Sequence record: PV682554.1
DNA: 64,000 nucleotides
Source: Escherichia phage 92CQ
Strand: one strand, 5' to 3'
The notes below the pieces were generated by a model that saw only the letters and a list, made by a program, of their open reading frames with translations, was not told the DNA's origin and made no database searches. Below are positions 6,460 to 7,113 of the stretch, one piece after another; within the stretch, counting starts at the first letter, position 1; every line of letters starts with the position of its first letter. Position numbers and translations under genes: made by a program.

Positions 6460-7113
6460 TTAATTATCAGAGGATACTTTATCAAGTTTTTCAGAGACTG
6501 TCAATACTTTTTCTTGTGATTCTTTCATTTCTGCTAAAATGCTTTCAGCTTCATCACTATCAGGATCACCAGTCAACAGCATACTAATTAGTTGCTCCTT
6601 GCTGAAGTTCAGAATATCTTCCGCTGTTAGCTCCAATTGTTCTTCAATCTCTTCGACAAAAGTTTCACCTCCTGAAAAAGCATCTCGTAGTTTTGCAACT
6701 TCCATTGCTTCTTCTGGGGTTGCCCCAGCATCTAAAGCTGCTAAAGCAAAGTCTGCCCCACTACCAACAGCATAATAGTCTTCAGTTAAAGGATATGCTC
6801 GCGTTGGATTATTACCCTCGTGCATATAAATTTTACCGTCTGGGTGAACAACCAGTGCCACAAACTCTTCATCTTCTTTATCGGGATCTGACTGGATCAC
6901 CAAACCTGGGATTGTCTCTTGTGCTGCCTGGCATTGTAAGTTTTGTTCAAACCAAGAAAAGAAAGTCAGGATAGAAGACAGACGTCCTGCACCACCAACA
7001 AGGTAGTCCCCAATTTTACGCACTTTCTTGAAGTTTAAAGTGTCTACACGACTACCTACTGTTACCTTACCGTCAGACAGAATTTTGTTACGTGTTGCAA
7101 TAATTGTTGTCAT
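6460..7113 (-). CDS. putative HslV-like Ntn-hydrolase peptidase
   Basis: MTTIIATR N-terminus (Thr directly after Met), KKVRK and GGAG pattern resembling HslV/proteasome beta subunits; acidic C-terminal tail. Confidence 0.5.
   Translation of the reverse strand: MTTIIATRNKILSDGKVTVGSRVDTLNFKKVRKIGDYLVGGAGRLSSILTFFSWFEQNLQCQAAQETIPGLVIQSDPDKEDEEFVALVVHPDGKIYMHEGNNPTRAYPLTEDYYAVGSGADFALAALDAGATPEEAMEVAKLRDAFSGGETFVEEIEEQLELTAEDILNFSKEQLISMLLTGDPDSDEAESILAEMKESQEKVLTVSEKLDKVSSDN

Follow-up and report, generated by a model that had tools for sequence, protein, structure and literature searches.

The PPH/RPC group comprises proteasome homologues that lack helix H2 (Fuchs, Alva and Lupas 2021; PMC8665760). 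The published view of this group draws no link to an unfoldase (PMC8665760), several of the new proteasome homologues may not form stacked rings, and the C-termini of the homologues point away from the presumed rings and are possible interaction sites (Fuchs et al.; PMC8665760). Another described system is Rrp (SP_1145 of Streptococcus pneumoniae TIGR4), a proteasome-beta-like N-terminal-nucleophile (Ntn) protease located on a phage-like mobile element. This proteasome homologue is a stand-alone protease and was experimentally shown to cleave the N-terminus of bL27 without a dedicated unfoldase (bioRxiv 10.64898/2026.08.10.744006). Here we consider a gene of Escherichia phage 92CQ encoding a protein of this superfamily, further referred to as the peptidase. 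The window, that is, the whole stretch of DNA analysed, contains 64,000 nucleotides of sequence record PV682554.1. A first-pass annotation made from the letters alone described the product as an HslV-like Ntn peptidase that could pair with host HslU. We propose, with a probability of about 0.6, that it belongs to the phage PPH/RPC class and works as a stand-alone threonine endopeptidase independent of HslU, docking through a C-terminal module. The features of the gene are as follows.

6460–7113, minus strand: coding sequence of the phage proteasome-like threonine peptidase, 217 amino acids (aa), from the list of open reading frames (ORFs); the stop codon is at 6460–6462.
6646–7113, minus strand: catalytic Ntn core, residues 1–156, strands S1–S11, from the AlphaFold2 (AF2) model and alignments.
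7108–7110, minus strand: triplet encoding Thr2, which is predicted to become the N-terminal nucleophile after loss of the initiator Met, from the sequence.
7121–7126, minus strand: Shine-Dalgarno sequence AGGAGG, 7 nt 5' of the peptidase ATG and within the 3' end of the upstream gene, from the sequence.

The ORF starts with ATG and has 217 codons, and the N-terminus of its product is MTTIIATRNKILSDGKVTVGSRVDTLNFKKVRKIGDYLVGGAGR. The features on which the first-pass annotation relied, namely the MTT start, KKVRK (residues 29–33), GGAG (residues 40–43) and the acidic tail, are all present, and the database statistics are far beyond chance. Structure prediction and comparison with HslV, set beforehand as a check, revealed the Ntn fold with the catalytic Thr, Lys and Asp aligned. 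The AF2 model has the alpha-beta-beta-alpha architecture with the S1–S11 core that characterizes PF00227 and MEROPS T1. The helices of the core are H1 (residues 45–67), H3 (120–128) and H4 (133–143), and the place of H2 after H1 is taken by a 16-residue loop (68–83). HslV is the best match of the peptidase in PDB both by sequence and by structure. The figures in the fold table are 18.8 for Thermotoga HslV (1m4y), 18.2 for an archaeal 20S beta subunit (6z46_H), 16–17 for eukaryotic beta subunits, 15.2 for BPH, 13.7 for Anbu and 11 for Connectase.

The catalytic set of the peptidase consists of T2, D14, K30, G40, S118, D144 and S147. The first five residues align to Thr1, Asp17, Lys33, Gly45 and Ser124 of E. 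coli HslV in pairwise and hidden Markov model (HMM) alignments. All seven match the full 20S beta set Thr1/Asp17/Lys33/Gly47/Ser129/Asp166/Ser169, with S118, D144 and S147 being the equivalents of Ser129, Asp166 and Ser169. This complete set, together with the superfamily matches and the MTT start, bears out the assignment to Ntn peptidases with Thr at the mature N-terminus. In the alignment of 37 sequences with identity down to 43%, six of the seven residues are invariant and S147 is conserved in at least 90% of sequences. The further invariant columns are G40–G43, the GSG containing S118, and D144, G148 and G149 of the RDxxSGG motif. Among the best 150 representative relatives from the whole-library search, 145 had not been retrieved previously; the MTT start was observed in 119 of these 145, G[ST]G in 143, and DxxSGG in 108. 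A pseudo-enzyme is unlikely, since the conserved catalytic residues show selection on catalysis. Methionine aminopeptidase cleaves Met when Thr is the next residue, as for HslV. By analogy, the initiator Met of the peptidase would be removed, exposing Thr1 (T2 of the ORF) and making a propeptide unnecessary. Judged from the sequence and the model, our confidence in the fold, the family and the predicted catalytic competence is very high.

The peptidase matches PHROG 1040 ('peptidase HslV family') with E=8e-62, residues 1–212 being aligned to profile positions 14–214 of 277. The last ~60 profile positions, corresponding to a terminal domain, are absent from the window protein, unlike most PHROG 1040 members. 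Searches with the family profile yielded 57 clusters at E<1e-30, mostly proteins of 165–350 aa with C-terminal extensions. Below these clusters there are hundreds of MTT proteins of about 140–150 aa that score 80–95 bits against the profile; in a separate search of PDB the same profile scores the best HslV at about 50 bits. The number of cluster representatives was 1,325 at E<=1e-10 and 7,056 at E<=1e-3, the latter including more distant proteasome-family relatives. The proteasome-like fold was also found in at least 50 viral structure clusters (BFVD). Homologues are present in 166 phage records, among them Escherichia, Klebsiella, Vibrio, Aeromonas and Shewanella phages, and are located on contigs of about 140–155 kb. 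A pattern scan that covered 185,579 species genomes gave a single match, in one 425-bp contig. Hence, the subfamily is essentially phage-only, unlike RPC, reported from Proteobacteria only and not from phages.

The traits of the PPH/RPC group are all found in the peptidase: it is a phage-borne group I homologue with a compact beta-sheet core of ~140 aa bearing Thr1/Asp17/Lys33, and it has neither a propeptide nor H2. Like RPC, it bears a C-terminal extension. The PHROG 1040 branch matches the PPH/RPC group as a whole by these published traits; the published representatives are WP_042125023.1 for PPH and WP_140207863 for RPC.

At the level of annotation the gene is a rediscovery, the gene, its annotation and its family being already known. 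The region has 98–99% identity to 55 phi92-like E. coli phages (genus Justusliebigvirus, subfamily Stephanstirmvirinae), and 99–100% identical copies of the protein occur in 52 phage records. The identical full sequence is deposited at NCBI as WWP17863.1, 'peptidase HslV family [Escherichia phage ALITA]'. The orthologues include the product of phi92 gene 058 (gp058, 98.6% identity) and bas62_0199 of the BASEL phage JohannJBalmer, labelled 'putative proteasome component'; this label, 'peptidase HslV family' and 'putative 20S proteasome' are used for the near-identical copies. No functional study of phage HslV-like, PPH, RPC or PHROG 1040 proteins was found in the searched literature, and PADLOC, applied to the relationship of the peptidase with defence systems, produced zero matches.

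The description of the peptidase as HslV-like holds for the proteasome-beta/HslV superfamily but does not extend to HslV sensu stricto. Its scores are far below the cut-offs of both equivalog models for HslV in NCBIfam (34.0 vs 137 bits for NF003964 and 31.6 vs 157.75 bits for TIGR03692), so the HMM search that had been suggested as a further check placed the protein in PHROG 1040 but not among HslV equivalogs. The identity to host HslV is 29%. In the family-profile search of PDB sequences, the N-terminal half is closest to HslV (E=2.5e-12), whereas residues 110–171 are closest to proteasome beta5. The C-terminal half matches beta5 better than HslV because HslV lacks the 20S-type RDxxSGG motif, which in the peptidase occupies the place of GDICIYTN of HslV. 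Like HslV (ClpQ), the peptidase has an MTT N-terminus without a propeptide. Unlike HslV, it is shorter by 9 residues between H3 and H4, ends in an acidic tail of 61 residues and has neither H2 nor an hslU partner gene; the annotation of the near-identical JohannJBalmer genome (145 kb) includes neither hslU nor an unfoldase of the protease type. Considering both the alignments and the model, the peptidase is not an HslV orthologue.

The other known systems differ as well. Compared to 20S beta subunits (archaeal beta, eukaryotic beta5), the peptidase lacks the propeptide, H2, H5/S12 and an alpha-subunit partner, and its core of ~156 aa is much shorter. BPH from beta-proteobacteria (5OVS/5OVU) is bacterial and, unlike the peptidase, retains H2, forms heptameric double rings and has long acidic pore loops. 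Rrp is Anbu/beta-like, has extra domains and comes from a Gram-positive host; it serves here only as a functional precedent.

In HslUV, the C-terminal tail of HslU enters an inter-subunit pocket of HslV that includes Phe54, Phe57, Gln114, Ala79 and Lys80, the last two belonging to helix H2 (PMC6429459). This apical pocket at H1 and H2 was not found in the peptidase, and in shorter relatives the region of H2 is deleted entirely. The family alignment has variable aliphatic residues opposite Phe54 and either Pro or Tyr opposite Gln114. HslV Lys28, which reportedly binds the C-terminal carboxylate of HslU (structure 1G3I), aligns to T25 of the peptidase, a variable position. Independence from host HslU seems most likely, because the apical H2 and the residues of the HslU-tail pocket are missing; our confidence in it is moderate. 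The suggested pairing with host HslU is not supported by either the alignments or the model.

The sole AAA-type candidate for a phage unfoldase partner was bas62_0104 of JohannJBalmer, annotated as 'FtsH-like protease' and encoded outside the window. It was rejected as a specific partner, since its phyletic spread does not track the peptidase: its homologues are found in many unrelated phages of Gram-positive bacteria, including Enterococcus, Bacillus, Staphylococcus and Lactococcus phages, and some of them are annotated as clamp loader. The 375-aa product of bas62_0104 (L006:25667-26791) contains an AAA ATPase domain only, without a protease domain, and the label 'protease' is probably wrong.

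The second part of the peptidase is its C-terminal extension.

6463–6645, minus strand: C-terminal extension, residues 157–217, acidic and predicted helical, from composition and AF2.
6565–6636, minus strand: conserved post-core motif, residues about 160–183, LELTAEDILNFSKEQLISMLLTGD, from the alignment of relatives.

The acidic extension noted in the first-pass annotation contains 17 acidic and 5 basic residues (net charge −12, pI 4.05). In the AF2 model it forms helices 164–169, 172–181 and 188–214, and it has zero matches in Pfam. The last core strand is followed by an acidic linker and then by the motif, predicted to be two short helices. Its consensus, EE..E-LT.E....MSKEELL..LF(G/P).E., is present in nearly all of ~50 divergent long members (50%-identity cluster representatives), and L175 is at least 90% conserved in the family alignment. 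Most relatives continue for 60–120 residues past the motif and end with '...L..lA..L.I.yAHNIG.EKL..RI..'. This terminal motif was observed in P0073–P0129 and in Vibrio phage 1.193.O (L002:3501-4298) and is absent from window positions 6463–6564. For one member it gave sub-threshold matches to Ish1 (E=0.001), Rho_N (0.033) and SAP_new25 (0.037); in the longer relatives it may be of the HeH/SAP type and act as a nucleic-acid tether. One sublineage (P0061–P0071, P0069, P0083) has a distinct C-terminal domain formed by the last 100–170 residues, in which a C-x(22)-CxxC segment precedes a Trp-rich domain that ends with W(K/R)LHNA or WKLADE; this domain has zero matches in Pfam.

The window protein retains the post-core motif, and a 35-residue acidic helix stands where the terminal domain would be. 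By comparison with the relatives, most of which carry it, the terminal HeH-like module has been lost in the phi92-group protein. A constant helix followed by exchangeable modules suggests a role in recruiting partners or substrates, or in assembling the ring. Among PDB sequences the post-core motif has a weak, non-significant match to residues 210–225 of E. coli RpoB (ALNYTTEQILDLFFEK), with a whole-sequence E=0.0027 against an isolated beta fragment and a single-domain E=2.4. A clamp-binding or ClpX-binding motif was considered for the post-core motif and rejected as a poor fit by inspection.

In the proposed mechanism, the threonine endopeptidase would use Thr1 together with D14/K30, G40 as the oxyanion Gly, and S118/D144/S147; it would most likely work as a homo-oligomer and without host HslU. 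The post-core helix and the acidic tail would form a docking, targeting or assembly module, at the position where relatives are extended by interchangeable C-terminal domains. The gene would be co-expressed with early/middle genes of nucleotide and sugar metabolism, and a helical 163-aa protein, whose gene lies immediately upstream and is putatively coupled, may regulate or cap the peptidase. During infection the enzyme would cleave proteins of the host or the phage, and it would not serve head maturation. Our confidence in the roles of the tail and of the 163-aa neighbour is low.

Several observations weigh against this mechanism. Pocket residue Phe57 is conserved in the family, as F52, and is the sole pocket residue retained; docking of HslU may be possible despite the loss of H2, the absence of which is no proof. 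The AF2 prediction covers the monomer, and the homo-oligomeric state is a proposal. Isolated subunits of the proteasome type are generally inactive outside the assembled ring, and the peptidase activity of HslV on its own is weak, so that the phage enzyme, too, may require an activator. Model confidence for the tail is moderate to low, the predicted local distance difference test (pLDDT) falling from 79 to 49. Conservation of the 163-aa neighbour may be simple lineage synteny, and this neighbour was not detected beside the homologues from Vibrio and Aeromonas phages. Biochemical work on PPH/RPC/PHROG 1040 proteins was absent from the searched literature.

The most serious alternative, although a doubtful one, is a non-chambered enzyme of site-specific processing. 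Such an enzyme would be monomeric or a small oligomer and would cut one or a few defined proteins of the phage or the host, possibly with recruitment by the C-terminal motif; it might even act as a transpeptidase like connectase. The trimming of bL27 by Rrp, borne by a mobile genetic element, without an unfoldase (bioRxiv 10.64898/2026.08.10.744006), the specific ligation that the fold can support in connectase (PMC8665760) and the possible absence of stacked rings in several new homologues (Fuchs et al.; PMC8665760) all favour it. The variable C-terminal targeting domains of the relatives also fit substrate-specific recruitment, and tight coupling could mark the 163-aa neighbour as a substrate or adaptor. 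It is improbable that HslV-like double hexameric rings of the phage protein dock host HslU, which would unfold and feed substrates and thus retarget ATP-dependent proteolysis. The retained F52 would agree with such docking. However, the failed equivalog thresholds, the absence of H2 with pocket residues Ala79 and Lys80, and the lack of conservation at Phe54, Gln114 and, presumably, the carboxylate contact Lys28 stand against it, as does the fact that most relatives infect diverse hosts and bear bulky C-terminal domains. The view of PPH/RPC published without an unfoldase link (PMC8665760) points in the same direction.

The remaining two explanations have much lower probabilities. A decoy or poison subunit would co-assemble with host HslV or titrate HslU, inhibiting HslUV and, for instance, shielding unstable phage proteins, with the catalytic residues being incidental. 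Homology to HslV is detectable across the ring-forming core, and phages commonly inhibit host proteases, T4 PinA vs Lon being an example. Yet the catalytic apparatus has stayed invariant over deep divergence, as expected if selection acts on catalysis; mixed rings are unlikely given 29% identity to host HslV and the absence of H2; and the homologues occur in phages of many hosts. Hence we regard a decoy as very improbable. A role as the protease of capsid (prohead) maturation, or as some other virion-associated protease, is more improbable still: the peptidase is encoded by a phage, and unusual maturation proteases are employed by some phages, but a separate prohead protease gene lies between the portal and scaffold genes (bas62_0005 in JohannJBalmer; window positions 44508–44999). 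Prohead proteases are encoded in the head-morphogenesis module beside portal and scaffold, and the peptidase gene is not; it is situated on the opposite strand, in an early/middle block with genes for PhoH, lysozyme, glutaredoxin, dTDP-rhamnose synthesis and ribonucleotide reductase (RNR). The separate prohead protease and the early/middle position of the gene led us to reject the role in head maturation.

The stand-alone threonine endopeptidase may be developed into a tentative scheme, which we consider possible while thinking the odds to be against it. PHROG 1040 proteins would then be autonomous, unfoldase-independent 'mini-proteasomes' of large phages, with the post-core helix (LTxE....MSKEELL..LF) as a docking element that either binds the 163-aa protein, which would be a cap or regulator of a new kind, or tethers the enzyme to specific host targets via interchangeable modules (an HeH-like DNA/RNA-binding motif, a zinc-ribbon domain or the acidic tail). 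If true, this would give the virus a modular system of proteolysis with which to take over the host or counter its defences.

The outcome is mostly corrective: the peptidase is real but already annotated, it is no HslV orthologue, and hijacking of HslU is disfavoured. Several observations are new: the peptidase failed the tests of HslV membership, it has the Asp166/Ser169 motif of the 20S type, and a conserved motif follows its core. Furthermore, the phi92 group has lost the terminal module, a conserved neighbour gene overlaps the peptidase gene, and the subfamily is absent from bacterial genomes. Proteasome homologues encoded by phages are abundant. Since the phi92/BASEL phages can be grown on E. 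coli K-12 and are amenable to genetics, the peptidase gene is a convenient entry point. It could show how a virus uses a private threonine protease, whether an AAA+ unfoldase is dispensable, and how the proteasome fold tolerates the loss of H2.

The peptidase gene is located in a long minus-strand block that also comprises genes for thymidylate synthase, endolysin, DNA methyltransferase and resolvase, in addition to those named above. This block is an early/middle metabolic region and not a structural module. The nearest features are listed below.

5991–6419, minus strand: downstream gene encoding 142 aa (PHROG 15078), syntenic with the peptidase gene in relatives.
6433–6450, minus strand: hairpin with a 7-bp G+C stem, AACCCCCTCAAGGGGGTT, between the peptidase stop codon and the ribosome-binding site of the next gene.
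7113–7604, minus strand: upstream gene encoding 163 aa (PHROG 14834), whose TAA stop overlaps the peptidase ATG (TAATG).
7641–8393, minus strand: PhoH-like P-loop ATPase gene, two genes upstream (Pfam PhoH, E=1.4e-35).

The product of the 163-aa gene is helical and conserved. We propose that the peptidase gene is translationally coupled to it and infer that its product is a candidate partner or regulator. The downstream 142-aa product has 47% identity to its Phapecoctavirus counterpart and 26% to that of a metagenomic relative. The gene order PhoH–x–peptidase recurs in distant relatives and probably reflects lineage synteny rather than functional linkage. PhoH itself was rejected as a partner: it is not an unfoldase and is widespread in phages without the peptidase.

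The hairpin at 6433–6450 could function in transcription attenuation or mRNA stabilisation, although this is uncertain. As a terminator it was rejected, its fold being not significantly better than that of shuffled sequence (z=-0.76). Palindromic G+C hairpins occur in three consecutive intergenic gaps (6433–6450, 7619–7632 and 8410–8429) of the minus-strand operon lysozyme / PhoH / 163-aa gene and peptidase / 142-aa gene; the scan flags them on the plus strand only. The auxiliary genes of JohannJBalmer, partly contained in the window, encode a sirtuin, a macrodomain protein, enzymes of NAD salvage (NAMPT, PRPP synthetase) and the dTDP-rhamnose pathway. The same phage also has a UvrD/Rep helicase with an intein and a tRNA cluster of 15 genes that a homing endonuclease interrupts.
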